Below, piece after piece: positions 1-24,713 of a stretch of DNA of 53,729 bases. Both the position numbers and the translations under genes were made by a program. The notes under the pieces were generated by a model. That model worked only from the letters and a program-made list of their open reading frames with translations, was not told the origin of the DNA and searched no databases. This stretch comes from a virus (taxonomy: Duplodnaviria; Caudoviricetes), in IMG/VR virus record IMGVR_UViG_3300036846_000650, positions 1 to 53,729 of that record, one strand, 5' to 3'. How positions within the stretch are numbered: position 1 is the stretch's first letter; each line of letters opens with the position of its first letter.

Positions 1-700
1 GAGCGCGGAGTACGCGCTGCGCCATGTGTTCGTCGGCGGCGCATCATCGAGCACCGTCTACACGCAGCAGCGGATCGAGGACGGCTACCGGGTCAGCAAC
101 AAGCAGGTGACATGCTCATTTTGGGCCAGAGCGACCGTCGCGGGAATAATCCTCGGGGCTGGCGGTGGCATGGGGGGGATACCGTCATCCGACTCCGGAC
201 AGGTGACCTTGACCACGACCTGGGCGCGCTACTCGGTGACGTTCCATATGCCGTCGATGGCGGGGAATTCTCCCACCTACGGCCTGCTGACGCTCCAGAA
301 TTCCTCCAGTAGCAATTACGACGGGATGTATGGCACCACTGGCGTGCAGTCCGGCACGGTGGACATCTGGAACGTCAAGCTGGAGCTTGGCCCCACGATG
401 ACAGCCCCGGAGAAGATCGACCCGCAGCAAGACCTCGCCAAATGCCAACGCTATTTCCAGGCCAACTTTTTTGCGTTCAATAGTTATTGCGCAGCCGGTG
501 GCCAATTTGGCGGGTCGGTGCCCTTTGCTGTGCCAATGCGTGCGAACCCGACCGTGGCATTCAGTGGAATATCCTACGGAAATTGCGCCAGCCTTACGGC
601 GTCATTCATTGCCGGGGGCGCATTCACCGCCAACGCCAATGCTACGGCTGCGGCAGCGACAACTCTTGCGGCTAGTTACACAGCATCGGCGGACCTCTGA
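1..700 (+). CDS. Fibre/receptor-binding protein, C-terminal part (5'-truncated by the window edge)
   Basis: The frame is open from the window start. Beta-rich CBM-like region followed by QDLAKCQRYFQ and F.VPMRANPTV motifs typical of phage fibre C-termini. Confidence 0.7.
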   Translation, partial: SAEYALRHVFVGGASSSTVYTQQRIEDGYRVSNKQVTCSFWARATVAGIILGAGGGMGGIPSSDSGQVTLTTTWARYSVTFHMPSMAGNSPTYGLLTLQNSSSSNYDGMYGTTGVQSGTVDIWNVKLELGPTMTAPEKIDPQQDLAKCQRYFQANFFAFNSYCAAGGQFGGSVPFAVPMRANPTVAFSGISYGNCASLTASFIAGGAFTANANATAAAATTLAASYTASADL

Positions 701-3862: not shown

Positions 3863-4066
3863 CTAAGGCTTGGCTTTGTTTTGCCCCGGCACCGGAACTA
3901 CCACGGCACGGTAGCCAAGTCTTGTGAATTCGGCGCGCAGTTCGTCGCCAGTCAGCCCGACGCACCAGTGCAGGATCGGTGCCGCCTCGACGCAGCGGTC
4001 GGTCACCTCGTTGTAGACGAGCCCGGCAACGAAGCTGTCGTCACGTCCCCTCACCCTAACCAGCAC
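3863..4066 (-). CDS. Small conserved-looking phage hypothetical protein
   Basis: GTG start overlapping the HNH gene end; FVAGL...AAPILHW pattern. Confidence 0.6.
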   Translation of the reverse strand: MLVRVRGRDDSFVAGLVYNEVTDRCVEAAPILHWCVGLTGDELRAEFTRLGYRAVVVPVPGQNKAKP

Positions 4067-4541
4067 GGAAGAACTCCCCGAAATGCCGTTGAGCGGCCTG
4101 GATATAGGCGGCGCGTGCCTCAGCGACTGTATCGAATACACCTATGAATTTGCGTTTCCTGTTTAGGTAGATCGCAGTCTGGAATTTATCCCGACACCGT
4201 TGAACACCTTTCGGAAGGTCATGATTACGGCGGCGTCGGCTGTTCTGACTGTTCTGGGCCTTAGTGGCTTCGCGCAGATTGGTCCAGCGGTTGTTAAAAT
4301 GATCACCATCGTGATGGTCAATTAAGCCGGTCGGATCACGGCCTGTCGCGATTTTCCAGATGATCCGCGACGCTTTGTAAAGGACACGGTCAAGGCGGAC
4401 TAAGACGCCAACTTTCTCGGCCGGGCAGCCCGCTACCTTTCCGGCGAATTGTCCACAACGCCAACGCAGTAAGCCGGTTTCCGGCTCATAGGCAAAACTC
4501 CGTCGCAGATAGTCCGCTTCGGGCAATGGCTTCGCGCGCAT
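4056..4541 (-). CDS. HNH homing endonuclease with AP2-like C-terminal domain
   Basis: YEPETGLLRW, IDHHDGDHFNNRWTNLREAT..QN, GV, IGVFDTVAEARAAY...HFGEF. Confidence 0.92.
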   Translation of the reverse strand: MRAKPLPEADYLRRSFAYEPETGLLRWRCGQFAGKVAGCPAEKVGVLVRLDRVLYKASRIIWKIATGRDPTGLIDHHDGDHFNNRWTNLREATKAQNSQNSRRRRNHDLPKGVQRCRDKFQTAIYLNRKRKFIGVFDTVAEARAAYIQAAQRHFGEFFRAG

Positions 4542-4570
4542 CCCGTAGTCTAACACCAAGGAGAAAAGCC

Positions 4571-7021
4571 GTGCCAGGATTGAGTGTAAGCGATGTAGTT
4601 AACGTCACCATCAACATGAGCCCGCTGGCGGTGCCACTGCGCAATTTCGGCGCGCAGCTATTCGCCGGTCCGTCGGCGGTGATCGATGTCAAGGAGCGGC
4701 TGCGGGAATATACCACGCTGGATCAGGTGGTGTCGGATTTCGGCACCGCCGCGCCGGAATATCTGGCGGCTGATTTGTTTTTCTCGCAGAGCCCGCAGCC
4801 CAGCATCTGCTACATCGGCCGGTTCGCGCAGACCGCCTCCAGCGCGGTGCTGCACGGCAGGATATTCAGCACCGCTGGCTCCGCGGCGCTGATCCGCCAG
4901 ATGCAGCAGATCACCAACGGCTCGATGCGGATCACGGTGGACGGCACGGTCCGCACCGCTTCGGCGGTGGCGGCCTACCTGAACGGCGGGGTGTTCTCGG
5001 CCGGCAATCAGGCCCCGCTGCTCACCACGCTGCAAGCGATCCTTGATGGTGCCTTCGGCATAACGATCGATGGCACGGCGCGGCAGATCAATCGCACGGC
5101 CGGGGTGATCGTCGGCGGGGCTACCGCTTCGGCCGATCAGGGGGCTCTGCTGACCAGCTTGCAGGCGATCACCGACGGCGGCTTTGCCATGACCATCGAT
5201 GGCACGTTGCGGCAGGTAGGCCCGATCGACTTCACCACCGCGGTCAATCTGGTGTCGTGCGCGGCGCTGATCGACGGCGAGCTTGGCTCCTGGGGCGACT
5301 GCAAGTGGGACGCCACCAATGGCACCTTTATCATCAGTTCGGCGACCTCGGGCGTTGCCTCGACGGTCACCTACGCCTCCGCGCCGCTCGCCGGCACCGA
5401 CATTTCGACCATCCTCCTGATGACTTCGGCCTCCGGGGCGGGTGCGCCGGTGGCGGGTGCCGCGGCCGGGATCGACTTCGCGGCGACGCAGTCGCTCGCC
5501 GACTGCGCGGCGCTGATCAACGTGGCGATGGCGGGCTGGGGTGGCTGCACTTGGGATGGGGTGATCGGCCGTTTCATCCTGACCTCGGCGACCACGGGGG
5601 CCGCTTCCACGATCACCTATGCGACCCCTCCGGGCACCGTGATCACCACCACCACCACCGCCGCGGTTGTCGCTGGGGACACAGTGATCCCGGTCGCGTC
5701 GGCTACCGGCATGGCAAACGGGATGGCGATTTCCGGCACAGGCATTCCGGCCGGCACGGTGATCAACACAATTGCCGGGCTCAATATCACGATCTCGAAT
5801 GCGACCACCGGCAGCGGCGTGGCGAACGGTGCGACGATCACGGTCACCTCCGCTGGGGCTGGCACCGACCTGTCGGCTCCACTGCAACTCACCTCGGCGA
5901 CCGGGGCGACTGCGCCAGTTGCGGGCAGCACCGGGATGAACTTCGCCGCGATCACCAACTTGAACGGCGCAGCCAGCATCATCCAGGCGGCGCTGCCCGG
6001 CGCATCGGTGGAATGGGACGGCACTCGCTTCCATATTTCCAGCCTCTCGGCCGGGCCCAACTCGACGCTGAGCTACGCGTCATCGGCGGGCACCGGGCAG
6101 GACATCTCGCTGATGACCGGCCTGTCGCAGGCGGGCGGGGCCACTCCACCGGTGAACGGGGTGAGTGCGGAGAGCCCGCTGCAAGCGGCGGCGGCGCTGC
6201 GCGCGCATCCGGAATGGTATGGGATGCAATTTGCGGTCACCACCGACATCTCGATCGATGACTACGTGGCGGTGGCGCAGTTCATCGAGGGGTGCTCGCC
6301 GTCCAGCATCTTTGGCTACACCACGATGGACACTGCGGCGCTCGATCCGACCAGCACCACCGACCTCGCGGCGACGCTGAAATCCTACACCCTGGAGCGC
6401 ACCTACGGGCAGTACAGCAGCAGTTCGCCGTATGCCAGCGCGAGCCTTGTGGCCAGGGCGTTCACCGTGGACTTCGAGGCCAACAACACCACCATCACCT
6501 TGAAGTTCAAACAGGAGCCGGGCGTCCAGGGCGAGCAGTTGACCGAGAGTCAGGCGGCGGCACTCAAGGGCAAGAACTGCAACGTGTTTGTCTACTACAG
6601 CAATGACGCTGCGATCATCCAGGAAGGGGTGATGTGCAACGGATTTTTCTTCGATGAGGTGCACGGGACGGACTGGCAAGCCAACAGGATACAGACCGAT
6701 CTGTTCAACGTGCTGTATCAGTCACCGACGAAAATTCCCCAAACAAATCCAGGCATCCACATCCTGGTGACCACGGTCACCGCGTCACTCAATCAGGGCG
6801 TGGTGAATGGGCTGATCGCACCGGGGCAGTGGAATGCGCCCGGTTTCGGCCAGTTGAAGCAGGGGCAGATACTACCGGACGGCTTCTATGTCTGGGCTCC
6901 GCTGGTGGAGAGCCAGCCGCAGGCAATCCGCGAGCAACGGATCGCACCGACCATCCAAGCCGCGATCAAGCTCGCGGGTGCGGTGCACAAGGCCAACGTC
7001 ATCGTCAACGTTAATCGCTAA
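4571..7021 (+). CDS. Contractile tail sheath protein (DUF3383 type), expanded to 816 aa
   Basis: AAGGAG SD then GTG at 4571; GLSVSDVVNV, FFSQSPQP, TITLKFKQEPG, KIPQT and LAGAVH motifs. Confidence 0.92.
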   Translation: MPGLSVSDVVNVTINMSPLAVPLRNFGAQLFAGPSAVIDVKERLREYTTLDQVVSDFGTAAPEYLAADLFFSQSPQPSICYIGRFAQTASSAVLHGRIFSTAGSAALIRQMQQITNGSMRITVDGTVRTASAVAAYLNGGVFSAGNQAPLLTTLQAILDGAFGITIDGTARQINRTAGVIVGGATASADQGALLTSLQAITDGGFAMTIDGTLRQVGPIDFTTAVNLVSCAALIDGELGSWGDCKWDATNGTFIISSATSGVASTVTYASAPLAGTDISTILLMTSASGAGAPVAGAAAGIDFAATQSLADCAALINVAMAGWGGCTWDGVIGRFILTSATTGAASTITYATPPGTVITTTTTAAVVAGDTVIPVASATGMANGMAISGTGIPAGTVINTIAGLNITISNATTGSGVANGATITVTSAGAGTDLSAPLQLTSATGATAPVAGSTGMNFAAITNLNGAASIIQAALPGASVEWDGTRFHISSLSAGPNSTLSYASSAGTGQDISLMTGLSQAGGATPPVNGVSAESPLQAAAALRAHPEWYGMQFAVTTDISIDDYVAVAQFIEGCSPSSIFGYTTMDTAALDPTSTTDLAATLKSYTLERTYGQYSSSSPYASASLVARAFTVDFEANNTTITLKFKQEPGVQGEQLTESQAAALKGKNCNVFVYYSNDAAIIQEGVMCNGFFFDEVHGTDWQANRIQTDLFNVLYQSPTKIPQTNPGIHILVTTVTASLNQGVVNGLIAPGQWNAPGFGQLKQGQILPDGFYVWAPLVESQPQAIREQRIAPTIQAAIKLAGAVHKANVIVNVNR

Positions 7022-7222
7022 GTGCGCCGTCGCCCGCTGACCGTGGTGCTGGTGGTCGCGGCGACGATCGTGCTGACCGCTGCGCTCAAGTGGGTCGATC
7101 CAAACTGGCCGATCTGTTGGACCTGTGTCCGGGCGGCGCAGCCGCGATGCCCACCGCCGAAACGGATCATCCTGCGGGTGCAGCGGGACGGCACCGCGCA
7201 GATGTTCTGCGTCACTCCGTAG
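7022..7222 (+). CDS. Small membrane-anchored Cys-containing protein
   Basis: Basic N-terminus, TM helix, four Cys; abuts the sheath stop. Confidence 0.45.
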   Translation: MRRRPLTVVLVVAATIVLTAALKWVDPNWPICWTCVRAAQPRCPPPKRIILRVQRDGTAQMFCVTP

Positions 7223-7529
7223 GCAACGGCTCCAAAGGCCAGCCATTTCGTCGCGCCCGCCAGCGTCGCCGATAGAGGTTGGCTTTCTCGACATTGGCCC
7301 GCCGCCACTCGCCGGCATATTCCGGATGTGTGTCGCGAAATCTAGCATTCTTGGCGGCGACTTCATCCGGATTTTTCTCCTGCCAGTCTTGGGTCCATTC
7401 GAGCACGCATTGCCGGCAGCCTTTTGTGCTGACCCAACGCTCGGAAATATGGCCGTGAATGCACGGTCTTCCGGTGAAGTAGCGCTTCAGCCCGCGCTGT
7501 TGCGCGGCTGCACGACTGATCGTCCGCAT
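7212..7529 (-). CDS. Zn-binding N-terminal domain of phage HNH-type proteins, no nuclease domain
   Basis: GLKRYFTGRPCIHGHISER...CRQC; GGAG SD; no HNH motif. Confidence 0.75.
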   Translation of the reverse strand: MRTISRAAAQQRGLKRYFTGRPCIHGHISERWVSTKGCRQCVLEWTQDWQEKNPDEVAAKNARFRDTHPEYAGEWRRANVEKANLYRRRWRARRNGWPLEPLPTE

Positions 7530-7558: not shown

Positions 7559-8026
7559 TTGGCTGTATATTCCTTCATTGATGTGGCAGCAACGATCACG
7601 GGACCCGGTGGGTCCTTTTCGTTGGGCTATGGTTCTGGCAATGCTGAAGAAGGCATCAGCATCGCAATGACCGAGGATAAGAACACAATGACCATCGGCG
7701 CGGATGGGAGCGTGATGCACTCCCTCCACGCCGGCAATGGCGGCACGGTCACCATCCGCTTCTTGAAGACCTCGCCCACCAATCAGCAGCTTGCGGTGAT
7801 GTATGACCTGCAACGCGTGTCGTCGGCGTTGTGGGGCCAGAACACCATCGTGGTGAGCGATCCCGCGCGCGGCGATCAGATCAGTTGCTCGCAGGTCGCC
7901 TTCCAGCGCTGGCCGAATGTCACCTACGCCAAAGACGGCGGAATGCAGGAATGGGCGTTTCATTGCGGCGTCATCACCGGCGTCCTGGGTGACGGCACGT
8001 CGGGCGTTGCCAACGTGGTGCAATAG
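7559..8026 (+). CDS. Tail tube protein (DUF3277 type)
   Basis: AAGGAGG SD with TTG start; YSFIDV, EEGISI, MTIGADG and LKTSPTN motifs. Confidence 0.9.
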   Translation: MAVYSFIDVAATITGPGGSFSLGYGSGNAEEGISIAMTEDKNTMTIGADGSVMHSLHAGNGGTVTIRFLKTSPTNQQLAVMYDLQRVSSALWGQNTIVVSDPARGDQISCSQVAFQRWPNVTYAKDGGMQEWAFHCGVITGVLGDGTSGVANVVQ

Positions 8027-8028
8027 CC

Positions 8029-8526
8029 ATGTTGGAATTCAACGTCGGGGAGCACCGCTATCGCGCGCGGAAGATGAACGCGCGGCAGCAATTCCACGTG
8101 GCGCGCCGGCTCGGGCCGCTGTTCAATCAGCTACTGCAACTCGGCCCGGCGATTGCCAATCTGACGCCGGGCACGATGGGCGACGCGGAGGCCAACAAGG
8201 TATTCGAGGAGGCGCTGGGAGCCTTCACCAGCGCGCTCGCCAAGATACCGGACCAAGACTGCGACTATGTGCTGGACCGCTGCATGGAGGTGTCACAGCG
8301 CCTGCAAGGCGGCAACGGCTCGGGGCAGTCGGTGTGGGCGGACGTGTGGAATTCCCGGCTCGGCCGGATGATGTTTGAGGACATCGACGTGGCCGAGATG
8401 TTCAACATTGCCGGGGAGGTCTTGCGGGACAATCTCTCGGGTTTTTTCAGTATAATGCCCGGGCCGAGTCCGAACGGGGCGGATACGGAGCCGTCGCATC
8501 AGGCGATCCCGGCTTCCGTGCAGTGA
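8029..8526 (+). CDS. Tail assembly chaperone (G-like)
   Basis: YRARKMNARQQFHVARRL; follows the tube gene; contains a slippery site. Confidence 0.85.
   Translation: MLEFNVGEHRYRARKMNARQQFHVARRLGPLFNQLLQLGPAIANLTPGTMGDAEANKVFEEALGAFTSALAKIPDQDCDYVLDRCMEVSQRLQGGNGSGQSVWADVWNSRLGRMMFEDIDVAEMFNIAGEVLRDNLSGFFSIMPGPSPNGADTEPSHQAIPASVQ
8439..8448 (+). other. Programmed -1 ribosomal frameshift site GGGTTTTTTC
   Basis: G_GGT_TTT and T_TTT_TTC heptamers are in phase. The -1 frame is open for 26 codons into the 8523-8708 ORF. Confidence 0.75.
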
Positions 8527-8708
8527 CCCTTGCGGACGGGGAATTCTACCTGATGCGCCCAGCACTTGCTGGGGTGTATCGGATGGAAAGCCTGCTCGAC
8601 GGCTCACTGGACCTGGAGGCCGTCACCTTGGCGAACGACGCGCTTGACGTGCAGCAGGAAAATGAGCGGCGCTATCGCTCGATGATGGAGCGGGAGACCC
8701 GGCAATGA
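8523..8708 (+). CDS. Tail assembly chaperone second part (T-like)
   Basis: YLMRP...SLLDGSLDL...LANDALDV..ENE motif; lies in the -1 frame of the preceding gene. Confidence 0.8.
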   Translation: MTLADGEFYLMRPALAGVYRMESLLDGSLDLEAVTLANDALDVQQENERRYRSMMERETRQ

Positions 8709-9955
8709 CCGTGATGGCACCATCTGGCGATCCGACTATTCCGGTAGTGCCGTCGGCACCGCCAGCGCAGCTTCCCGGGGAAGCCAACACCGCCACGCCC
8801 GACATCACGCCGTCCGCGGCATCGGACCCATCGCCCAGCTATCAGCAAGCCTATGCCGACCCGAATGCGAAATCCGGCCAGCGCTACTGGCTGCGCAAGT
8901 GGAAGCTGACGATTAGTAGTCCTGACACTCAAGTGCCGGTCACTACGGGAAGCAGTCCGAAAACACCTGGAGCCACGCCGTCGCAGCGCGCAGCAACGGT
9001 GCTGCCGGAGGTGACGGTCACCGCCAAGCGCGATCCGTCCACCACCACCAAGAGCGGGCAGACCATGGACCTGTCGCTCCTGCACATCACCTTCACGGTG
9101 GAGAAGGGCACCTACCAGAGCCCGACCACCGCGGTGATCCGGGTCTACAATCTGGGCCTGGATGACATGGCGAAAATCGCCAAGCAGTACAAACAGGTGA
9201 CCCTGGAAGCGGGCTATCAGAATGACCCGTATGGCATCATCTTCAAGGGCACCATCGCGTGGTTCGAGCACGGCAAGCAGAGCCCGACCGAGACCATGCT
9301 GACGATCCACGCCAACGAACTCGACGTGGCGGTGAATAATGCGGCGGTGAATGCGACGCTGCCGGCGGGTGTAACCCACAAGGACGTGGTGATGGCGGCG
9401 GCGACCGCGATGGCTCCGTTCGGGCTGTCGGTCGGCTACATCTCGAAATACCTGGATGACAGCAAGAGCCCACGCAGTCGCACCGTGTTTGGCATGGCAC
9501 GCGACGTGCTGCGCGACATCACCCGGACCAACAACGCCACCGCCTCTATCGATGGCGGGCAACTGAATATCGTGCGCTACGATGAGACCCTGCCGTCACC
9601 GGCCATCGTGCTGAACACCGCCCACGGCATGATCGGCATTCCCTCGATCGTCGCCGGCCAGGGCGTGCACGTGCGGTCACTGCTCAATCCGGCATTCAAG
9701 GCCAACGGCTCGCTGCGGATCGACCAACGCGGCATGATGCAGCAGGAAGGCGATCAAAGCACCGATCCGCAGAAGGGCTTGGCGCTGGCCGCCGACGCCG
9801 CGGCCAAGCTCCAGGTGTCGGCCGATGGTAGCTACAAAATCCTCAAGGTGACGCACACCGGGGATAATCGCGGCAACGCGTGGTATTCCGACCTCACCAC
9901 AGAGCCATCGGTGCCGACCGCGGCCAATCTCGGGATCAAGGTGACGGGAGAGTAA
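8705..9955 (+). CDS. Baseplate hub protein with Pro/Thr-rich N-terminal extension
   Basis: WLRKWKL, AVIRVYNL, VTLEAGY...GIIFKG, SLLNP and HTGDNRGNAWY motifs. Confidence 0.85.
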   Translation: MTVMAPSGDPTIPVVPSAPPAQLPGEANTATPDITPSAASDPSPSYQQAYADPNAKSGQRYWLRKWKLTISSPDTQVPVTTGSSPKTPGATPSQRAATVLPEVTVTAKRDPSTTTKSGQTMDLSLLHITFTVEKGTYQSPTTAVIRVYNLGLDDMAKIAKQYKQVTLEAGYQNDPYGIIFKGTIAWFEHGKQSPTETMLTIHANELDVAVNNAAVNATLPAGVTHKDVVMAAATAMAPFGLSVGYISKYLDDSKSPRSRTVFGMARDVLRDITRTNNATASIDGGQLNIVRYDETLPSPAIVLNTAHGMIGIPSIVAGQGVHVRSLLNPAFKANGSLRIDQRGMMQQEGDQSTDPQKGLALAADAAAKLQVSADGSYKILKVTHTGDNRGNAWYSDLTTEPSVPTAANLGIKVTGE

Positions 9956-10267
9956 ATGAACGCTGCTTCGCCTATTCTGATCGAGGCTAGGGCGCGGGGG
10001 CTGAAACGCTTCTTCACCGGCAAGCCGTGCAAGTATGGCCACGTGTCGGAGCGGACTGTGTCCGGACAGAAGTGCGTCGCTTGCCTTCTGATATATGAGC
10101 AGGAGCGCTACGCCGCTGATCCAGCGCCCAAGATAGCCAAGACCGCAGCATATTATGCCAGGAACAAGGCTCGGATGGACCTCCTGAGAGCTAACTGGCG
10201 CGCGGCAAACAAGGATCACATCCGCCAGTACGAACGTGCGTGGAGGCGAGATAATGGCCGCCACTGA
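9956..10267 (+). CDS. Second Zn-binding HNH-associated N-terminal domain protein, no nuclease domain
   Basis: GLKRFFTGKPCKYGHVSER...CVAC; paralogous to 7212-7529. Confidence 0.75.
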   Translation: MNAASPILIEARARGLKRFFTGKPCKYGHVSERTVSGQKCVACLLIYEQERYAADPAPKIAKTAAYYARNKARMDLLRANWRAANKDHIRQYERAWRRDNGRH

Positions 10268-12662
10268 GCTTTTACAAGAATTCTTAGTAAGTGTCCGCTA
10301 CGGCGTAGACGCGGCCAGCCAGCGCTCATTCCTCGATGGGCTGAAGCGGATGGCCGGCTCGGTCTCCGGGGTGGCGGCGGAGGTGGTGGCACTGTCCGGC
10401 GCGGTGATCGCGTTTGCCGAGAAGATGGCGCGGGCCGGCGAGCAACTGTACTTCATGGGCCAGCGGATCGGCTCGACGGTCAACGACATCCAGGCGGCCA
10501 CCTTCGCGATGAGCCAACTGGGCACATCGGCCGATGACGCGAAATCCTCGATGGAGTCGCTGGGTAGGTTCCAGCGCACCTACGGCCCGGCCGCCACCGC
10601 GTATATGCGGATGCTCGGGGTGACCGCCACCGACACCGCGCACCAGATGCAGCAACTCGGCCAGATCATCGGCCGGATGGGGCCGCAGGGGAGTGTCGGC
10701 TACGCGCGCGGGCTGGCGATGGCCGGCATGATGGGGATCAGTGAAAACGCCCTGCGTGCGGTCAGCAGTCCGGAATATCAGGCGCAACTGGCGTGGTTCG
10801 ACAAGCTCACCGAGAGCATCAACAAGGCCGGCGGCAATCTCGGTCGGTTCGGTATTCTGTCGCATCAGGTCATGGATACCTTCCGACAATGGTGGGCGCT
10901 GATCGAGCAGATTGCGCAGGCATTTGCGGTCGCGTTATTCCCTGGCCTCAACAAAAACATGCAGACCATGCTGGGGATGATGCAGGCGCATATGCCGCAG
11001 ATCATCGCCTGGGTGCAGGGGGCGGCGCAGGCATTAACTGCGTTCGGCGACACCATCATGTTCGTGGTGCGCGGCCTGGGGCAGTTTACCGAATGGATCG
11101 GCAATCTCGATCCGATGATCCGGCACATCATCGAGGGCTTCGCCGGGCTGAAGGCCGCGATGTGGCTGATCGGCACGGAAATCCTGTCATCGCCGTTCGG
11201 CTGGCTGTTGATGACGCTCGGCGCGATCATGCTGTTGCTGGACGACTACAGCGCCTGGGCGTCGGGCGGCAAGTCGGCCATCAACTGGTCCTTCCTGGGG
11301 GATTTCCAGAAGAAATTCGCCGGCATCAAGGAAGGCATCGACGGCTGGATGAAGTCGATCTTTGGGGTCGAGCACGGCTTCAATGATCTGGTCGGCGCGG
11401 CAAGTGTGCTGTTCGGAGCCTGGATGCTGGGCGGCTTCGCCAAGGCGGAGGCTGCGGTCAAGGCGATCGGCGCGGCGGCCACGTCGTCACTGGGGCAATT
11501 CCTGCTCCTGACCGCAGCGATCATGGGCGCGGGGTGGCTGAAGGGAAAACTCGAACAAGGCAGCGAGGCGGTCGAGCGCTTCCTGTTTGGTGACAAGCGG
11601 GTGAACGAACGCAAGAAGATGCAGGAGCAGGGGCGCGAGCAATTCTGGCGTGGGGTGAGAAATGCGCCGTCGGCGATCGGCGGCGGCCTGGGCTGGCTAT
11701 GGCATCACACGCTTGGCTCCTCACCCGCGGCTGCGGCTGAGACCGGTGGTGGTGGCAAGACCGGCACTACCGCCACGCCAGCGGCATCGCCTGCATCGGT
11801 GGCTGCCGCGGCTGCGGCTGCGGCGACCGCGGTGGTGACTGGCGGCACGGCGGGCGGACCGGGTGGCGGTGACCCGTTCGCCTTCGACTGGTCGAAATAT
11901 GACGTGGGCGGCGCTGAGTCGAAGGACTTCCAAGACACCTACGGCCCGACCGGCATGGGCTCGCTGGGCTCGACCGGCGGGGTGGGCTCATTGCCCGGCG
12001 GCGGCATGTCCGATCCGATCTCGCCGCGGGACGCCTCTGCCAACGCGGTCCGGCTGCGCGACAAGATCATGGCCATGCTGGGAGTACCCGCCAATGTCGC
12101 GGCGGGCATCGTGTCCAATCTGATGGCCGAGTCCGGCGGCGTCTCGGACATCTGGTCGAAGATGGCACCGGTCGGCCAGGGCGGCTACGGGCTGATGCAG
12201 TGGGCTGGCTCACGCAGACGGGCACTGTTTGCTTGGGCGAAATCCAAGGGGCTCGATGCGTCCAAAGAGGACGTGCAACTGATGTTCATGAAGGAGGAGC
12301 TTGCCGCCAAATTCCCTGGCTTACTCGGCCGGATGGGAGGGATGACCGCGGAGCAGGCGGCCGGGCTATTCTTCGATGTCGCTGAGTCGGGCGGCGCGCA
12401 AAGTCTGATGCAGTATCGCCCCGGGCATATGGCGTGGGCCAGGAATGTAGAGCGGGCCTCCTCCGCAGACTTCGCGACTCCAGCGCCTTCGACGCCGATG
12501 ACCCGGCAGCACGCTTCGGCCGGAGGGCCGATGAACTTGCATCATCAGGTGGCGATCAATCTGCACGCGCCGGACCCGCACACCGGGGCGCGGCTGGTAG
12601 CGGATAATCAGGCCAGGATGCACGAGGACCTCGTGCGCAAGGCCGGTGGAGTGCTGGTATGA
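10254..12662 (+). CDS. Tape measure protein with C-terminal phage tail lysozyme domain
   Basis: LLQEFLVSV start; long Ala/Gly helical region with hydrophobic segments; AAGIVSNLMAESG...GYGLMQW lysozyme-like motif. Confidence 0.9.
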   Translation: MAATELLQEFLVSVRYGVDAASQRSFLDGLKRMAGSVSGVAAEVVALSGAVIAFAEKMARAGEQLYFMGQRIGSTVNDIQAATFAMSQLGTSADDAKSSMESLGRFQRTYGPAATAYMRMLGVTATDTAHQMQQLGQIIGRMGPQGSVGYARGLAMAGMMGISENALRAVSSPEYQAQLAWFDKLTESINKAGGNLGRFGILSHQVMDTFRQWWALIEQIAQAFAVALFPGLNKNMQTMLGMMQAHMPQIIAWVQGAAQALTAFGDTIMFVVRGLGQFTEWIGNLDPMIRHIIEGFAGLKAAMWLIGTEILSSPFGWLLMTLGAIMLLLDDYSAWASGGKSAINWSFLGDFQKKFAGIKEGIDGWMKSIFGVEHGFNDLVGAASVLFGAWMLGGFAKAEAAVKAIGAAATSSLGQFLLLTAAIMGAGWLKGKLEQGSEAVERFLFGDKRVNERKKMQEQGREQFWRGVRNAPSAIGGGLGWLWHHTLGSSPAAAAETGGGGKTGTTATPAASPASVAAAAAAAATAVVTGGTAGGPGGGDPFAFDWSKYDVGGAESKDFQDTYGPTGMGSLGSTGGVGSLPGGGMSDPISPRDASANAVRLRDKIMAMLGVPANVAAGIVSNLMAESGGVSDIWSKMAPVGQGGYGLMQWAGSRRRALFAWAKSKGLDASKEDVQLMFMKEELAAKFPGLLGRMGGMTAEQAAGLFFDVAESGGAQSLMQYRPGHMAWARNVERASSADFATPAPSTPMTRQHASAGGPMNLHHQVAINLHAPDPHTGARLVADNQARMHEDLVRKAGGVLV

Positions 12663-15998: not shown

Positions 15999-17216
15999 AT
16001 GAGCGGCACACTCTCCCCGACAGCGGCCTATGTGGACCAGTACGGTATCCACGCGCCCACCTTCACCGACATCCAAAACTACTTGATTTTGCAGTTTCAA
16101 CGCATCTACGGCAGCGACATCGTCACCTCCAACGACAGCCAGGACGGGCAACTGATCGGGGTGCTGGCGCTGGCGCTGGCGGACACCAACAGCGCCTGCC
16201 TCGCGGTCTACAACAGCTTCTCGCCGTCCACCGCCCAGGGCGTCGGACTGAGCAGCATGGTCAAGATCAACGGGATGACCCGGCAACTGCCGTCGAATTC
16301 CATGGTCGATCTGGTGTTGGTCGGCCAAGCCGGCACCCCGATTTCCAACGGCTACGCCACCGACGTGGCATCGCAGCGGTGGAACTTGCCGGTGTCAGTG
16401 CTGATCCCGCCCTCCGGGACCATCACGGTCACCGCCACCGCCGCCCAGCCGGGCGCGCTCACCGCGCAGCCGGGCGATATCACCCGGATCGGCAGTCCCA
16501 CCAGAGGCTGGCAGAGCGTCAACAATCCCACCGCCGCCAATCCTGGTGCGCCGGTGGAGACCGATGCGGCGCTGCGGGTGCGCCAGAGCACGTCGGCCGG
16601 GCTGCCGTCGGCCAGCGTGCTCGCCGGCATCCTGGGCGCGGTGTTGTCGCTGCCGGGGGTGACCGGCGGCAAAATCTACGAGAACGACACCGGGGCTACC
16701 GACGCCACCACCGGGCTGTCGGCGCACTCGATCGGGCTGGTGATCGAAGGCGGCGACGCGGCGCTGATCTGCCAGACCATCCTGCATCACAAGACCCCCG
16801 GCTGTTACACCGAAGGCACGACCCGGGTATCGACCGATGATGTCTACGGGCTGCCGCATGACATCGGATTTTATGTGCCGACGCAGAAGCCGGTCGGGGT
16901 GGCGATCACACTCACCGCGAAGCCGGGCTATTCCTCGGTGATCGGGCTGGCGATCTCGCAGACCATCGCCGACTACATCAATGGTCAGGGCTCCGGCGAG
17001 GAGGTGGTGTACTCGAAGCTGTGGTCCCCGGCCAATCTGTGCGACACCACGACCGGGCAGCCGCCGTCGGCGTCGAACACCTACGACATCACCGCGATGA
17101 CCATGGGCACGCCGGTGGATGGCACCGGGGCCTCCTACAGCACCGCCAATATTCCGGTGGCGATTTTCGAGATCGCGATGTGTGATCCGGCCAACGTGGT
17201 GATCACGGTCAGCTAA
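15999..17216 (+). CDS. Baseplate J/gp47-like wedge protein
   Basis: DSQDGQLIG, YNSFSPSTAQG, ETDAALRVRQ and IYENDT motifs. Confidence 0.92.
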   Translation: MSGTLSPTAAYVDQYGIHAPTFTDIQNYLILQFQRIYGSDIVTSNDSQDGQLIGVLALALADTNSACLAVYNSFSPSTAQGVGLSSMVKINGMTRQLPSNSMVDLVLVGQAGTPISNGYATDVASQRWNLPVSVLIPPSGTITVTATAAQPGALTAQPGDITRIGSPTRGWQSVNNPTAANPGAPVETDAALRVRQSTSAGLPSASVLAGILGAVLSLPGVTGGKIYENDTGATDATTGLSAHSIGLVIEGGDAALICQTILHHKTPGCYTEGTTRVSTDDVYGLPHDIGFYVPTQKPVGVAITLTAKPGYSSVIGLAISQTIADYINGQGSGEEVVYSKLWSPANLCDTTTGQPPSASNTYDITAMTMGTPVDGTGASYSTANIPVAIFEIAMCDPANVVITVS

Positions 17217-17920: not shown

Positions 17921-19855
17921 ATGGCGACCAATGACTTTGTCACCTTCGCGGCTGATCCCGCGGCGGATGTCGAAACGCAGGCAAACTACATCGATGTGGC
18001 CGCCACATGGCGCATCCTTGGCTTTGCCACCGGCACCGCGATCAGCACCCAGCTTAACAAGGTCTGGCGGCAGGCGTCGCTGATCTCCGCGATGATCGGT
18101 GAGTTCTGCATCACCGAGACCGGCAATGACATGCTGGACGACGGCACCACCACCGGCATGGCGGCCTTGCAGAACACCTTCACCGCGGCGGTGCAGGCGG
18201 CGGCGATTGCCGCGATCGGCACCGGCTACTTGCCGCTAACCGGAGGTACTCTCACCGGCAATCTGGTGGTCAACTCGCCGCTGATTCAGATCAACTCGCC
18301 GACCGGCACCAACGCGAATTTCGCGCTGAACTCGCACGCCGCCAACGGAGACTTCCTCACCGGCTACACCAACAACGTGGCGCGCTGGCAGATGGCGCTG
18401 GGCGACGTGACACCGGAGACCGGGCAGAACGCCGGCAGCAACTTCTCGCTGTCTCGCTTTGCCGACAGCGGCGCGGTGCTGGGCACGCCGATCTCGATCA
18501 ATCGCGCCACCGGCATCGTCAACTTTGCCCAGGTGCCGACCCTGAACAATCAGCCGCTGCCATTCCTGCCCAGCATCGGCGGCTACCTGTCCGGCGACAT
18601 CATCTTCACCGGCGGCACCGGCATCTACTATGCGGTCGGCACTTACTCGCACGCCCACGAATTCGGCTGGGATGGCGCGAATATCCTGGCCTGGGTGGAC
18701 GGCACCTATGAGGGCAATCTTGCCTTGCAAGGCTGGGTCAGCGGCGTGGTGGGTGGCTACTTGCCGCTCTCTGGTGGGACTCTCACCGGCAACTTGCAGG
18801 TGAATGGCTCGTTGGTGGTCAACGGCGGCTCCGGCTTCCGAAGCTCGGTCTGGTTCGCCAATATCGGCGACTTCGCAAACTTCTCCGACGGTCGCACCCG
18901 CTACCGGCAGTGGGCGGGAAATTGGTGGGATGGCTGGGATGGCACGAACGGCAATCGCACATGGTATTGCGCCGGTGGCCAGAGCATGTTCCTCGACGGT
19001 GCGGCGAATTTTCAGACCTCCGGTCATATCCTGTCGCTCAACGGCCGGATCATCAGCCAATCCGGCGGGGCGTCGTCGGTGTCGGCGTGGAATTACGGTG
19101 CTGGGTCCAACAATGGCTTCTGGAACGACGGCAATCTGGTGTTCGGTGGTCTGGACGGCTCGGGCAACCCATCGTCTGCCTGGGTGTGGGTCCAGCCCGG
19201 CGGCCAACTCAATGTCGCCGGAGGTGCCTCGGTCGGCGGACAGATTTATTCCGGCAACAACATCGTCGCTGCGGCCGGGCTGATCGCCTACGGCGGAGCC
19301 TCGATCTCCGCCAATTGCGTTGTCGGCCAGAATATCTCAGCCGGCGGCGCGATCTGGTGCAACGGCTCGGTGGTCAGCTATGGCAGCAAGGTGATGGCCC
19401 AGGGCGGCTGGCCGCAGATTGCCGTCTACAATACGTCCACCGGCAACGCGGCGTCGTGGGACTGCGGCAGCGGCGGGCTGGAATGGGGCGCGGCCGACGG
19501 CAACGGCAACCGCTATAACGGGCTGATGAATCTGGACTGGGGCGGTAATTTCTTCGTCGCCGGGCATATCTACACACCGTCGGACGAACGGCTGAAGGAC
19601 AACATCACACCGGCCGATGACTTCGACAGCCTCGCTGCGATCTGCCGCACCCCGATCCACGCCTATGACCGCAGGCTGGACGGTCAGCACGTGCCGCACG
19701 GGATCATCGCCCAGGAAATCCGCCAGACTCTGCCTGACGTGGTTATGGAGCACGGCGCGGATGCGACACTGGCGCTCGATACCCACACCATGCTGGTCCA
19801 TGCCTTCCGTGCCATTGCGCAATTGAACGCCAAACTGGAGGCCCTGCATGTCTGA
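17921..19855 (+). CDS. Tail fibre with C-terminal intramolecular chaperone (peptidase S74-like)
   Basis: LNKVWRQAS baseplate anchor, repeated YLPL.GGTLTG, SDERLKDNI...GIIAQEI...AIAQL. Confidence 0.92.
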   Translation: MATNDFVTFAADPAADVETQANYIDVAATWRILGFATGTAISTQLNKVWRQASLISAMIGEFCITETGNDMLDDGTTTGMAALQNTFTAAVQAAAIAAIGTGYLPLTGGTLTGNLVVNSPLIQINSPTGTNANFALNSHAANGDFLTGYTNNVARWQMALGDVTPETGQNAGSNFSLSRFADSGAVLGTPISINRATGIVNFAQVPTLNNQPLPFLPSIGGYLSGDIIFTGGTGIYYAVGTYSHAHEFGWDGANILAWVDGTYEGNLALQGWVSGVVGGYLPLSGGTLTGNLQVNGSLVVNGGSGFRSSVWFANIGDFANFSDGRTRYRQWAGNWWDGWDGTNGNRTWYCAGGQSMFLDGAANFQTSGHILSLNGRIISQSGGASSVSAWNYGAGSNNGFWNDGNLVFGGLDGSGNPSSAWVWVQPGGQLNVAGGASVGGQIYSGNNIVAAAGLIAYGGASISANCVVGQNISAGGAIWCNGSVVSYGSKVMAQGGWPQIAVYNTSTGNAASWDCGSGGLEWGAADGNGNRYNGLMNLDWGGNFFVAGHIYTPSDERLKDNITPADDFDSLAAICRTPIHAYDRRLDGQHVPHGIIAQEIRQTLPDVVMEHGADATLALDTHTMLVHAFRAIAQLNAKLEALHV

Positions 19856-21296: not shown

Positions 21297-21496
21297 GGCA
21301 GAAATCCTGAGAGCAGGACGGTGCCGACCAGCGCGACACCGCCGACAAACAGAAGCAACAAGGCCGTCATCAGCCCGCAGTAGATCGCGAAGCGGATCGC
21401 CATCTTGCGCTGGTGCAGACGGCGGCGCTCCTCGATCGTGTCGGGCCGTAAGCGCCGGAAGACCATCCGGTAGGCCCGGATGAATTCCTGATCCAT
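21290..21496 (-). CDS. Small membrane protein
   Basis: MDQEFIRAY start, TGATG-coupled to recT; C-terminal TM. Confidence 0.6.
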   Translation of the reverse strand: MDQEFIRAYRMVFRRLRPDTIEERRRLHQRKMAIRFAIYCGLMTALLLLFVGGVALVGTVLLSGFLPW

Positions 21497-23364
21497 CACG
21501 CGGCGTCCGGCGGCTCGGGCTCGTCGGGCGGGCCAAGCTCCTCCAGCTTGGCGGCGAAGGCGTTGTCGGCACGCTCGAACTGCGCCGGATTCTCCCGCCG
21601 CAGCCGCTTCATCTCCCGCTGCACGTCGGGCGACGCGCCAAGCTCGGCCACTGCCCTGGCGGTGGTGTGCTCGGATAGCGTGTGGATGATGTCGTCCACC
21701 CAGCGGGCGTCCTTGTCGTCGGTCACCAGCTTCGGCTGGGGGCGTGGCGGTGCCGGCGTCGGTGGCTTGCCCGGTGCACCGGTGAGATCGATCACCCACT
21801 CCGGCAGCCCGGCCTTCAGTTGGTCACCCCGCTCGCGGATGTGCTTCAGCAGCAGCAGCCGGGTGGGCAACGGGGCCCGCTGCATCACCTCGCGCTGGAA
21901 ATCCAGCCACGTGGCGAGATCGCCGCGTAGCCCGAACAGGACCGACCGGAATTCCGCGGTGTAGCCTCGCCAGTCCGGCTTGCCCTCGCGGCTCTCCTTC
22001 AGGATGACGGACAGCAGCTTGGGCAGATCGCGCCGCTCCTCCATCACCGCGAGGAGTTGGTCGGCGATCGGGAATTTCCTGGCTTCTTCCAGGGCCTGCT
22101 CGTTGTTCTCCAGCAAGGTGGCGGTGTCGCGGGCGTGCTGCCACAGATTGATGAAGCCGCGGGCCCACTGCACCGGATCAACGAACGGCTCGGGGTCATA
22201 ATCCCCGACCTCGTCAATCAGAAACGCCTCGAAGGAGGGGTCGGTCAGCGGCTCCGGCTTTTCCTGAACGATGGGCGCGGGCTGGGCGGCCTTCCAACGG
22301 CGGAACTCCTCAAGCTCGGCCTCAGAGCCTTCTGGGCGGCGTCCGGCGTCGGCCGTGCTGTCGGGGCGGCGATCGGTGAAGGCGGCATCAGGAGCCGCCC
22401 CAGGGCTGCCGGTGGGCATGTATTCGGGCTCGGGATCATCACTGCGCTCGCCCAGGTGTGCCGCAGCGCTGGCATAGTCCGGATTGGCGTCGGTGCCGGC
22501 CATGTCGATCACCTTGCCGTAGTCGATGTCCCGGCGGTCGTGGGCCTCGTCAATCCGCACGGCGTTGGCCAGTTCGGCCGACTTGGGCAGGTACTTGGTG
22601 CCGTGGCGGATCATGGTCTTGCGCGCCATCGGCTCCTCGTGGGCGACCCACGGCGCGGCGGTCCAGGTGAGCGGGGGCCGCTTGCCCTCCTTCTGCGCCT
22701 CCTCCAGTGCCCGCAGTGCGCGCCGGTAGCCCTGGCTCATGTTGCGGATGCGCAGCACCTCGCCGTAGGGCCAGACTTCGATGGCCTGTCCGCCACCCAC
22801 CGTGTTGGCGTGGAAGTAGGCGTATTCCGGCCGGTCATCGGCGCTGCGCTCGCGCCGGCCGCCGCGCTTGAATTTCAGGAAGCTGTCGGTCCCTTCCTGC
22901 CAGTCGAACACGTCGGAGCCGGTGTAGACCACATTCGCCGACGTGTTGAGGATTTGCTTGGTGTTGTAGGCCAGCTTCAGCAGGCCGGAATAGCCGAAGA
23001 TCACCTGGATTTCGACCACCTCGCGGTCCGGCTTGCCGCGCTCCTTGATGGTGCGCCTGAAGGGGATCAGGTGCGCTTCATTTAACGCCGAATTCGGCTC
23101 CAGGCCGATATTGCTGGCGGTGAGGCAGGCTCCGGCAAAGCTGGTCGGTGTGGCCTTTACCAGGAGCGGATTGCCGCTGTGCGCGCGCAGGCACACCGAC
23201 AGCATCCGATCCGGGGTGATGTGGGTCGGCACCGACGCCATGATGCGCTCGCGGAACTCGGAGGACAGGAATAGCTCCTCCAGATTCCTGGCCGCCTTGA
23301 TCGGCACGTAATTCTCCCGCGGCAGGTTGGGGGTGGTGAGCGGCCTCCGTTTGGTGTCACTCAT
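21496..23364 (-). CDS. recT: RecT-family single-strand annealing protein with long C-terminal extension
   Basis: SFAGACLTASNIGLEP, AHLIPF, GYSGLLKLA and MARKTMIR...KYLPKS motifs. Confidence 0.9.
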   Translation of the reverse strand: MSDTKRRPLTTPNLPRENYVPIKAARNLEELFLSSEFRERIMASVPTHITPDRMLSVCLRAHSGNPLLVKATPTSFAGACLTASNIGLEPNSALNEAHLIPFRRTIKERGKPDREVVEIQVIFGYSGLLKLAYNTKQILNTSANVVYTGSDVFDWQEGTDSFLKFKRGGRRERSADDRPEYAYFHANTVGGGQAIEVWPYGEVLRIRNMSQGYRRALRALEEAQKEGKRPPLTWTAAPWVAHEEPMARKTMIRHGTKYLPKSAELANAVRIDEAHDRRDIDYGKVIDMAGTDANPDYASAAAHLGERSDDPEPEYMPTGSPGAAPDAAFTDRRPDSTADAGRRPEGSEAELEEFRRWKAAQPAPIVQEKPEPLTDPSFEAFLIDEVGDYDPEPFVDPVQWARGFINLWQHARDTATLLENNEQALEEARKFPIADQLLAVMEERRDLPKLLSVILKESREGKPDWRGYTAEFRSVLFGLRGDLATWLDFQREVMQRAPLPTRLLLLKHIRERGDQLKAGLPEWVIDLTGAPGKPPTPAPPRPQPKLVTDDKDARWVDDIIHTLSEHTTARAVAELGASPDVQREMKRLRRENPAQFERADNAFAAKLEELGPPDEPEPPDAA

Positions 23365-23365
23365 T

Positions 23366-24580
23366 TTATCGGTTCCTCATGACGATCGAGCGGTTGATTT
23401 TAATGCCGGGAATTGGCGAGCGGCCAGCCTTCGCATCCTCGCGCGCGGCCACCACGTCGTCACTGGCATAGGCGCGCAGCGTCTGGCCTACCAGTGCCTC
23501 ATTCACCTGGAGGTACTTGAGCGGCACCTTGCTGATGTCGGTGATCTGGAAGCTCCAGGTCTCCTGGCCCGACATGGTGCGGCCATAGCTGGTGTCGGCG
23601 CGGGTGAGATCGGCAGTGCGGCCAGATGCCAATTCCTGGGCCTCCTGGGCCTCCAGGGCGGCCTTGCGGGCGTCGTCCAGTAGCTGTGGCGCGGCCGGCG
23701 TCTCCCGCTGTAGCGCCTCCCTGGCCGCCTTGGCGAGGCGCTCCGCTTCGGCCTGGGCAGCGGCGGCACGGACGGCTTCCTCAGCCCGCCGCCGGGCGTC
23801 CTCTTTGGCCGCGTAGTCATTCATCAGCCGCTGCACTGGGGCCATCGCGGTATCAAGCTGCTTCAGGAGCTTGGCGAACCATTCATCGACCGCCCGGCCG
23901 CCCAACAGGAATGGGCGTTTGGCCGTGGTCCGGTGCTTCTCGGCCAGCCGCAGATGGGCCTTGGCGGTGTCCATGTTGCCGCCGATCTCGCCCAACCGGG
24001 CCTCGGTGGTGATCTCCGTGGTCTCAGCGTCCCTGGCCAACTGCGCCACGTCGGCGGCGATAGAGGCGGCCAGCGCCTCCTCCTCATACGCCAGCCATTC
24101 GACGATCGCCTTGGGCTCTAGCGGGGATGGCGGCGGCGGCCGATTGAGCGGCTCTACTGCCAGCGGCGCGGGCGGCGTCGGATTGCCGAATTCCGGGGTG
24201 AGGCGCAGCGTGGTGGGGTCCACCTGCTTACGCGGATCGAGACAGGGGTGGTCTGGATAGCTCTGGCGCGCCCATGCCTTCAGCGGGATCGGGCGGGCGT
24301 CGGGGTCCTCGCTGGTGCGGTAATTGTATTCCGCCGCGCTGATCGGCTCCTTGTCGGCAAGCCAGATGTCCATCACGCCGTCGGCCATGGCGGGGTCGGC
24401 ATTCGGCAGTCCGGCTTCCTTGCCGTCAATCACCGCGGACCACAGCCCGCCCTCGAAAATAATCCGGGCCGGCACATAAGGCCAGCCGCCGGAGTAACGG
24501 CGCAGCTTCCAGAGTCCAGGCTCCGGCTGATCGACGCGAATCGGGTCAAGCCCGCGACGGGCTCGGGGAGAACGGCTCAT
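23366..24580 (-). CDS. Recombination-module coiled-coil protein (Gp157/Gam-like C-terminus)
   Basis: AAGGAG SD before ATG at 24580; PEPGLW..R...GWPYVPARI N-domain; KRPFL...RAVDEWF coil; WSFQITD..KVP..YL...IPGI end. Confidence 0.65.
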   Translation of the reverse strand: MSRSPRARRGLDPIRVDQPEPGLWKLRRYSGGWPYVPARIIFEGGLWSAVIDGKEAGLPNADPAMADGVMDIWLADKEPISAAEYNYRTSEDPDARPIPLKAWARQSYPDHPCLDPRKQVDPTTLRLTPEFGNPTPPAPLAVEPLNRPPPPSPLEPKAIVEWLAYEEEALAASIAADVAQLARDAETTEITTEARLGEIGGNMDTAKAHLRLAEKHRTTAKRPFLLGGRAVDEWFAKLLKQLDTAMAPVQRLMNDYAAKEDARRRAEEAVRAAAAQAEAERLAKAAREALQRETPAAPQLLDDARKAALEAQEAQELASGRTADLTRADTSYGRTMSGQETWSFQITDISKVPLKYLQVNEALVGQTLRAYASDDVVAAREDAKAGRSPIPGIKINRSIVMRNR

Positions 24581-24713
24581 AGGGAACTCCTTGGGTGGAC
24601 GTGTGCGGCGATAGAATAGGCCAATCACCCGATGATTAACAGAAAATTCCGGCGGACTTGCTGACAAATGCCGTTCGGCCAACATATAGTCGCGGCAACA
24701 GGAGGTTAGCAGC

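Follow-up and report, generated by a model that had tools for sequence, protein, structure and literature searches.

The tail sheath gene treated here lies at positions 4571 to 7021 of a stretch of viral DNA of 53,729 nucleotides (Duplodnaviria; Caudoviricetes; IMG/VR virus record IMGVR_UViG_3300036846_000650, positions 1 to 53,729), which is referred to below as the window. Very probably, the sheath protein it encodes is one in which a surface insertion domain of ~118 residues has been copied twice into its own loop, a case of nested self-insertion in the sheath of a myovirus. A preliminary description of the same DNA had proposed that the halves of one domain follow one another along the chain in the order A1 A2 A3 B3 B2 B1, and this nested order is borne out by the series of copy numbers found among relatives, by the fixed point at which the outer copies are split, and by the mirror-image orthology of the units.

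The sheath gene and its product

On the + strand the longest open reading frame (ORF) spans 4526-7021 and would yield 831 amino acids (aa) from the ATG at 4526, and the database gene call (P0002) begins only at the ATG at 4616, yields 801 aa and thereby loses a conserved N-terminal arm, MPGLSVSDVVNVTIN. We prefer the GTG at 4571 as the likely true start, giving 816 aa, because a ribosome-binding site stands upstream of it and because the resulting N-terminus, MPGLSVSDVV, is the same as in the homologues P0004 and P0005. Residue numbers are counted from this GTG throughout; those of the 831-aa version (P0001) are 15 higher.

4571..7021, + strand: tail sheath gene, GTG start (the most likely one), 816 aa plus stop
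4560..4564, + strand: ribosome-binding site AGGAG, read from the sequence, ~6 nt upstream of GTG 4571

The protein matches the Pfam family DUF3383 (PF11863; model length 493 positions) in 5 stretches with E 3.4e-148 and 495.1 bits, compared to a curated cut-off of 34.9, as well as the PHROG family phrog_205, "tail sheath" (E 2.2e-118). As in other members of DUF3383, the conserved sheath core fold is made from both ends of the chain. Membership by sequence in the T4 gp18-type sheaths (the PF04984/PF17482 family) was not found for this protein, and Pfam returned no significant family besides DUF3383 anywhere along it, including the insert described below. Judged by these matches, the 816-aa protein is the contractile-tail sheath of a myovirus.

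Arrangement of the repeats

Between the two parts of the core lie six half-domains, three of type A followed by three of type B. They are listed here with their matches to a 117-position whole-domain profile that was built from 131 single-copy proteins, and for the core with its occupancy in the 150-sequence alignment and its per-residue model confidence (predicted local distance difference test, pLDDT).

4571..4849, + strand: core, N-terminal part, aa 1-93; 150/150 alignment rows occupied; pLDDT 88-98 past the first 10 residues
4850..4978, + strand: A1, outgoing half of the outer (proximal) copy, aa 94-136; profile 1-38, 21.1 bits
4979..5107, + strand: A2, outgoing half of the middle copy, aa 137-179; profile 1-36, 20.9 bits
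5108..5224, + strand: A3, first half of the innermost copy, aa 180-218; with B3 a single profile match, 3-117, 109.2 bits
5225..5470, + strand: B3, second half of the innermost copy, aa 219-300; same profile match as A3
5471..5935, + strand: B2, returning half of the middle copy, aa 301-455; profile 36-103 (53.3 bits) and 72-115 (12.4 bits)
5627..5845, + strand: beta-rich insert in B2, ~73 aa, ~aa 353-425, edges approximate; 155 minus the 82-aa period
5936..6166, + strand: B1, returning half of the outer copy, aa 456-532; profile 36-117, 78.5 bits
6167..7018, + strand: core, C-terminal part, aa 533-816; best Pfam stretch 468-829 (P0001 numbering), profile 123-493; pLDDT 95-99 up to the last 6 residues

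All six repeat starts given in the preliminary description are in frame with ORF 4526-7021, and its spacings hold: the A units begin at 4850, 4979 and 5108, at a spacing of precisely 129 nt (43 aa), and the B units at 5225, 5471 and 5936, separated first by 82 aa and then by 155 aa (82 + 73). Its estimate that ~493 aa would be left once two A+B pairs and the insert are removed also stands with the corrected start (816 - 2x125 - 73 = 493). In the self dot-plot it called for, diagonals of 25 aa scored with BLOSUM62 reach 89 (offset 82), 87 (offset 43), 76, 62, 58 and 56; when the repeat region was shuffled 200 times, the top window score had a mean of 37.8 (sd 4.6) and a maximum of 54, so that the six repeat diagonals outscore every shuffle. 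The domain profile reads along the protein as half, half, whole, half, half, with the outer copies split at 36-38. An innermost copy that is contiguous, enclosed by outer copies that are all split at one point, is what we find here and also in P0003, P0004 and 49 two-copy proteins.

The edges of the B2 insert are ambiguous, since the profile pieces that flank it overlap. Homologues of the insert were found in P0003 (8.6e-19), P0004 (9.7e-17), P0111 (8.9e-15) and the two-copy protein P0019 (5.5e-13). Homology to the inserts that distant proteins (P0122, P0128) carry at the same site was also considered, and phmmer found none. A separate observation on the B units concerns cysteine: Cys codons at 5258-5260 and 5300-5302 in B3 and at 5504-5506 and 5546-5548 in B2 place Cys at B columns 11 and 25 of both units, and both columns hold Cys in B3 of 3/3 three-copy proteins as compared to 3/131 single-copy domains. 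Such pairs could form a stabilising disulfide in the outer copies.

The repeats are evidently old, because the best repeat at the DNA level is just 71% identical over 68 nt. Their age bears on the most prosaic account of the gene, namely that the repeats arose through assembly or gene calling, or that the gene is a decaying remnant without a functional protein. The window is a metagenome-like contig in which no terminal repeat was found, and the database gene call begins late, both of which would fit such an origin. Against it stand a frame that is open for 816 codons, an intact tail module around the gene, DNA-level repeats of at most 71% identity, and the recurrence of the three-copy form in two further clusters, P0003 and P0004, which at 76-77% identity keep both the architecture and the insert. 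The age of the repeats, together with the same form in P0003 and P0004, therefore excludes an assembly artefact, and we regard artefact or decay taken together as exceedingly improbable.

Copy number among relatives

Relatives of the sheath were collected in two ways. A word-indexed search scored 7999 candidates and gave 1058 proteins at E <= 0.001, of which 120 were listed, and an exhaustive search of representatives gave 2992 proteins, of which 150 were listed. The counts of architectures below cover 269 listed sequences, scored with half-domain profiles and with the whole-domain profile (F, whole domain; a and b, halves).

One whole domain (F): 150 rows of 269, ~493 aa
Half, whole, half (aFb): 49 rows of 269, two-copy, 614-642 aa
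aaFbbb (B2 in two pieces): 4 rows of 269, namely the two versions of the window protein, P0003 and P0004
aFbb: 1 row of 269, P0019, two-copy, its inner B carrying an insert
Without the domain: 19 rows of 269, many of ~370-390 aa, like the Pam3 sheath

Homologues with one, two and three nested copies, which the preliminary description had suggested looking for, are thus all present among the listed sequences. The three-copy proteins range from 801 to 856 aa, and in proteins of the nested type the split point always falls at profile position 35-38. The nested forms come from metagenome-type sources and two NCBI records (P0027, P0034). In a phage collection that yielded 366 matching records, none covered >=80% of the query, and no nested form was found among the cultured phages of that collection, in which the six listed matches that were converted are of single-copy length.

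The copy numbers bear on a second explanation of the repeats, by which A and B are independent modules, each amplified in tandem (AAA, then BBB) and folding as six beads. Two sets of tandem duplications would also be expected to leave the order AAABBB, and tandem amplification is known in this family: P0217 has the arrangement FF, P0189 FFF and P0130 five units (FfffF), and P0151, P0159 and P0232 are tandem forms as well. These sheaths (P0130, 987 aa; P0189 and P0159, 739-740 aa; P0217 and P0151, 605-620 aa) belong to other parts of the DUF3383 family and are 36-41% identical to the window protein. The tandem forms, however, repeat the whole AB unit and never A or B alone, and the numbers of A and B are equal in every row of the nested class (49 aFb, 1 aFbb, 4 aaFbbb), rather than unequal as independent amplification might have left them according to the preliminary description. 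The extra b of P0019 is a B split by its insert and not an additional copy. Half-domain profiles gave 15 rows as "ABB"; in 12 of the 14 that were inspected the second B is likewise a fragment of one B that an insert divides, and the remaining row, P0057, is an N-truncated fragment. With ordinary tandem ABAB forms present in the same family, these sheaths have grown by two routes, nested and tandem.

The surface domain has accepted foreign sequence too, and unrelated inserts of 32 to ~200 aa are seen in three of its loops, at profile positions ~31-37, 61 and 93-105. At the A/B junction, P0142 carries 32 aa (aa 126-157) and P0251 ~100 aa (aa 132-232), unrelated inserts that mark this loop as permissive; near position 61 there are inserts in P0193 (aa 158-318), P0216 and P0227; and near positions 93-105, the site of the B2 insert in the window, in P0122, P0125, P0128 (aa 191-385), P0134 and others. 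Pfam found nothing but DUF3383 in the inserted modules of P0251, P0193, P0128 and P0122. A growth of another kind is seen in P0150 (1024 aa), a DUF3383 sheath with an N-terminal extension of 536 aa that contains PKD domains (PF18911, E 1.8e-23) and which may have been fused to the gene upstream or may be a genuinely decorated sheath.

Orthology and conservation of the units

Comparison with the two-copy proteins indicates which units correspond. Their outer A has a mean identity of 50% to A1, 42% to A2 and 39% to A3, while their inner A is closest to A2 (49%) and A3 (48%) and more distant from A1 (36%); their last B is 59% identical to B1, as compared to 37% and 44% for the other B units, and their first B is closest to B3 (48%). 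When 50 two-copy proteins were compared with the 3 three-copy proteins (150 comparisons), the expected partner won as follows.

Last B to B1: 148/150 wins
Inner A to A2/A3: 143/150 wins
First B to B2/B3: 141/150 wins
Outer A to A1: 114/150 wins

The units most similar to A2 are inner A units in 15/15 cases and those most similar to B1 are outer (last) B units in 15/15, A1 has its closest counterparts in the outer A of two-copy proteins, and HMMER aligned B1 to the B part of XM1 gp6. By these comparisons, the orthology of the units is mirror-symmetric, with outer A and last B equivalent to A1 and B1 and the inner units equivalent to A2/A3 and B3/B2. The third copy would therefore derive from an inner unit. 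Single-copy domains are outer-like rather than inner-like on the A side in 99/131 cases, on the B side in 118/131 and on both sides in 92/131.

Conservation follows the same shells. Among 49 two-copy proteins it is 68-69% in the core (calculated for the 47 that the alignment includes), 53% in the outer A, 61% in the outer B and 48% in each inner half. Variability is thus highest in the inner units, which would be in keeping with their being the most exposed part. That A and B of the same shell stand at the same level of conservation is a further argument against independent modules.

A tree of the core, based on the last 285 residues and obtained by a quick search with SH-aLRT support only, unites the three-copy proteins in one group (support 90) within a 56-row clade (support 99) that consists of 47 aFb rows, P0041, P0019, the 3 three-copy proteins and 4 single-copy proteins. 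The two-copy protein P0129 falls outside this clade on a long branch.

Pairing of the halves in structure models

The AlphaFold2 model of the window protein (150 aligned sequences) has a mean pLDDT of 84.3 and a predicted TM-score (pTM) of 0.68. Its confident parts are the core, A1, the A3 hairpin, most of B3 (91-95 over aa 201-270), the end of B2, and B1, and the start of B2 is moderate (73-82). The model of the two-copy protein P0026 (100 aligned sequences) has a mean pLDDT of 92.2 and a pTM of 0.76, with all half-segments at >=88. Pairing of the halves was read from the alignment ranges obtained in a full scan of 48,161 PDB representatives, a range being defined by the first and last aligned residue only. 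The chains listed below, with the two scan values and the number of aligned residues, are head domains of the flagellar cap protein FliD.

P0026 and 6kty_A: 9.3; 2.9; 104 aligned; model 131..263, inner, contiguous unit
P0026 and 5fhy_B: 8.6; 3.7; 109 aligned; model 131..262, inner unit
P0026 and 5h5t_A: 7.7; 3.5; 115 aligned; model 131..261, inner unit
P0026 and 5h5w_B: 8.1; 3.5; 112 aligned; model 88..340, outer A + outer B
Window protein and 6kty_A: 9.3; 2.9; 102 aligned; model 87..533, A1 + B1
Window protein and 5h5v_A: 8.6; 3.3; 112 aligned; model 89..533, A1 + B1
Window protein and 6sih_A: 8.6; 3.4; 114 aligned; model 89..533, A1 + B1
Window protein and 5fhy_B: 8.7; 3.7; 111 aligned; model 132..455, A2 + B2

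The structural similarity to the FliD head domain extends over most of the surface domain, and the ends of the ranges agree with the unit borders, starting 5-7 residues ahead of an A and ending at the last residue of a B. On P0026 the match to 5h5w_B uses the same FliD region (chain 102..225), with 112 residues aligned of 253 spanned. The pairing of A1 with B1 and of A2 with B2 that the preliminary description had predicted is thus upheld by FliD head domains that align to 87..533 and 132..455 of the model, and in these models the halves of the outer and of the middle copy, distant as they are in sequence, co-fold into one domain each.

These alignments tell most directly on independent modules. 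In the models, A and the start of B each look like a helix followed by a hairpin, as might be expected of separate beads of similar build. FliD heads nevertheless align as single rigid bodies to A1+B1, to A2+B2 and to the outer pair of P0026, and the single insertion domain of the XM1 sheath is described in the available text of PMC10457771 as one oval domain. Together with the equal copy numbers, these observations lead us to consider six independently folding modules quite improbable.

A third explanation grants that the halves pair, and supposes that they do so crossed (A1 with B3) or between neighbouring subunits, as a domain swap. Swaps within the lattice would be invisible to predictions of the monomer, and confidence in the window model is low for the middle copy. 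The alignment ranges, however, stop exactly at the nested borders (87..533, 132..455, 88..340, 131..263), orthology and conservation are mirror-symmetric, and a crossed pairing would probably require all four half ends to meet at one point, where nesting would reuse the native insertion geometry. A covariation score trained on single-copy domains also preferred nested to crossed pairing in 41/49 two-copy proteins; this support is weak, since the proteins compared are relatives of one another, the model overfits (+14 for training pairs, -17 for shuffled ones) and even the nested pairs score negative. Crossed or swapped pairing appears to us a shade less probable again than independent modules.

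Other comparisons contribute little to the choice of pairing. A complex prediction of A1 (aa 94-136) with B1 (aa 456-532), run without controls, gave 0.29 as compared to a mark of 0.32; Foldseek global alignments, with an rmsd of 15-23 A over the whole chain, were uninformative on domain pairing; and a structural alignment with XM1 gp6 over 453-454 residues, at an rmsd of 7.7-7.9, did not resolve the matched A and B halves.

Several observations weigh against nested self-insertion, or at least against a simple history of it. The same sequence would result whether the domain was inserted into itself at the junction or A and B were each duplicated in tandem (to AA and BB) with the duplications abutting. 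The middle copy is poorly modelled, with pLDDT <50 at 157-197, 279-299 and most of 342-424, including the A2 hairpin and the B2 insert, which makes the part of the model behind the A2+B2 match a weak one; these low stretches are where the alignment columns are thinnest (A2 28/150, B2 body 3/150 and insert 4/150 rows). P0171 and P0227, distant proteins that fall outside the nested type, each show an almost entire second B without a detectable second A, and may be degenerate tandem forms or true ABB proteins. In the core tree, the single-copy proteins P0054, P0056, P0058 and P0059 lie within the two-copy clade (support 98 with P0012). Their surface domain is not clearly outer-like, nor clearly inner-like, which leaves an origin by clean excision unsupported and suggests that the whole module was replaced by recombination; we rate module exchange as likely as clean loss for these four, and it blurs a simple 1-2-3 history. 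P0019 has the B insert in common with the three-copy proteins yet sits in another sub-clade, which again points to module exchange between related sheath genes.

Proposed architecture, history and role

If nested self-insertion is accepted, the receiving loop would lie between the first helix-hairpin of the domain (A, ~38 aa) and its remainder (B, ~80 aa), near profile position 36. The chain would leave the core through A1, A2 and A3, turn, and come back through B3, B2 and B1, such that A3+B3 would form an uninterrupted distal domain around which A2+B2 and A1+B1 are arranged as discontinuous domains. The number of copies probably grew from one to two to three, and an ancestor with two copies would have supplied the third from its inner unit. 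A second permissive loop holds the 73-aa beta-rich insert of the middle copy, and the proximal domain A1+B1 appears to retain residues like those of single-copy proteins.

Each sheath subunit would on this model carry three FliD-head-like domains in series outside its core, an outward extension of ~440 of the 816 residues that is predicted to be dispensable for contraction. The geometry is presumably that of a radial, telescoped spike, and the extension, probably decorative rather than mechanical, would thicken the tail surface and display a variable distal domain. As to what such decoration might be for, weak adhesion to glycans or polymers of the host surface has, in our estimate, about an even chance of being the role; lateral bracing of the extended sheath is a more doubtful candidate, and some role other than these two is less probable still.

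Genomic neighbourhood

The sheath gene adjoins a candidate tube gene, as expected of a DUF3383 sheath placed in a contractile-tail module, and further tail genes follow downstream.

7559-8026: candidate tube gene, phrog_280, listed as "virion structural protein"; "tube" is read from its position adjoining the sheath
8029-8526: tail assembly chaperone
8705-9955: baseplate hub
10236-12662: tape measure
15999-17216: baseplate wedge
17921-19855: tail fibre

The rest of the contig, whose GC content is ~64%, encodes a terminase, portal, neck protein, RecT-like protein, primase/helicase and methyltransferase. Given these genes and the tail module, the window is therefore judged to be a myovirus genome, complete or in large part. 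A search for related loci among genome contigs gave 18 pattern matches, of which none was confirmed, and so pointed to no host. Two nuclease genes on the opposite strand flank the sheath gene on both sides and look like insertions of the homing type; they might promote the transfer of sheath modules from phage to phage.

4056-4559, - strand: HNH endonuclease, phrog_99, E 4e-48; its edge is 12 nt before the sheath start
7212-7529, - strand: endonuclease VII-like small ORF, phrog_1081 (E 5.5e-18) and phrog_1035 (E 9.2e-08), between sheath and tube

Elsewhere in the window, two proteins are far longer than the PHROG profiles they match. One, of 621 aa (21496-23364, - strand), has a RecT-like annealing domain confined to its first 308 residues (profile of 387 positions), and the other, of 526 aa (23366-24949, - strand), has an exonuclease domain confined to its last 230 residues (profile of 243 positions).

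Comparison with known systems

In gp18 of phage T4, domains are nested one inside another. Within DUF3383 the closest known structure is that of Vibrio phage XM1 gp6 (PDB 7KH1/7KJK), a single-copy sheath of 495-497 aa with one insertion domain (InD), whereas the window protein has three nested domains and a 73-aa insert in 816 aa. The part of the XM1 report seen by us (PMC10457771) divides the sheath into a conserved inner part, with the handshake and the contact to the tube, and an external domain, and the corresponding part of the report on phage Milano (PMC10811340) names the external domain the sheath extension domain. According to the available sections of a survey of sheath proteins, "Evolution of Phage Tail Sheath Protein" (PMC9230969), extra domains are located away from the tube and are thought to be dispensable for contraction, adhesion or stabilisation has been proposed as their role, and some outer domains are discontinuous, being formed from an outgoing and a returning segment of the chain. 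The added domains of T4 gp18, phage 812 and the jumbo phages are presented there as mostly Ig-like and, in those sections, are not described as copies of one another, and sheaths of at least three domains are reported there mainly from genomes of >100 kb, as compared to the 53.7-kb contig studied here. A term look-up in PMC9230969 found "nested" absent and "duplication" used only of gene duplication.

Nested outer domains are also known from flagellar proteins. The D3 domain of FliD is described, in the part of PMC8533109 consulted, as a loop insertion of D2, and Table 1 of PMC5595980 places DUF3383-like domains in hypervariable regions of flagellin. FliD D2-D3 and the outer domains of flagellin, however, belong to another core and another machine than the phage sheath, and the three nested domains of the window protein are recognisable by sequence as copies of one domain. 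The tandem sheaths of DUF3383 (P0217, P0189, P0130) are of the same family and have amplified the same domain, though as whole AB units in succession, unlike the nested units of the window protein.

Outer sheath domains, discontinuous outer domains and nested outer domains in flagellar proteins are thus already known. What we have not found in print is one domain inserted twice in its own loop, within a family that preserves the stages of one, two and three copies and, in parallel, a tandem series; the literature searched, which left subscription journals mostly uncovered and excluded supplements, contained no earlier description of a self-nested domain or of a nested duplication in a sheath.

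Significance

Domain insertion and tandem duplication are two standard routes of protein growth, and the DUF3383 family applies both of them to one domain. The nested route was taken twice running at the same loop and its intermediates are extant, which provides a natural test bed for the tolerance of a domain to an inserted copy of itself, and for the growth at the tip of outer domains in helical polymers, as in flagellin and FliD. Over half of the sheath protein lies outside the contractile core, though the genome is of ~54 kb; set beside the much larger genomes that chiefly carry multi-domain sheaths in the sections of PMC9230969 available to us, this points to a selective benefit of decoration. 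The three permissive loops (~31-37, 61 and 93-105) might also serve the display of cargo on sheath nanotubes.

We would add, as a speculation to be held loosely, that the position-36 loop may be a recursion-competent site, at which every round would place a complete domain in the corresponding loop of the copy before it, with copy number (1, 2 or 3) as an evolvable dial of surface reach and the most variable copy always at the tip, where it would meet the host glycans. If so, the DUF3383 sheaths would constitute a natural series showing the repeated self-insertion of a domain that still folds, and a ready scaffold for cargo on self-assembling nanotubes.

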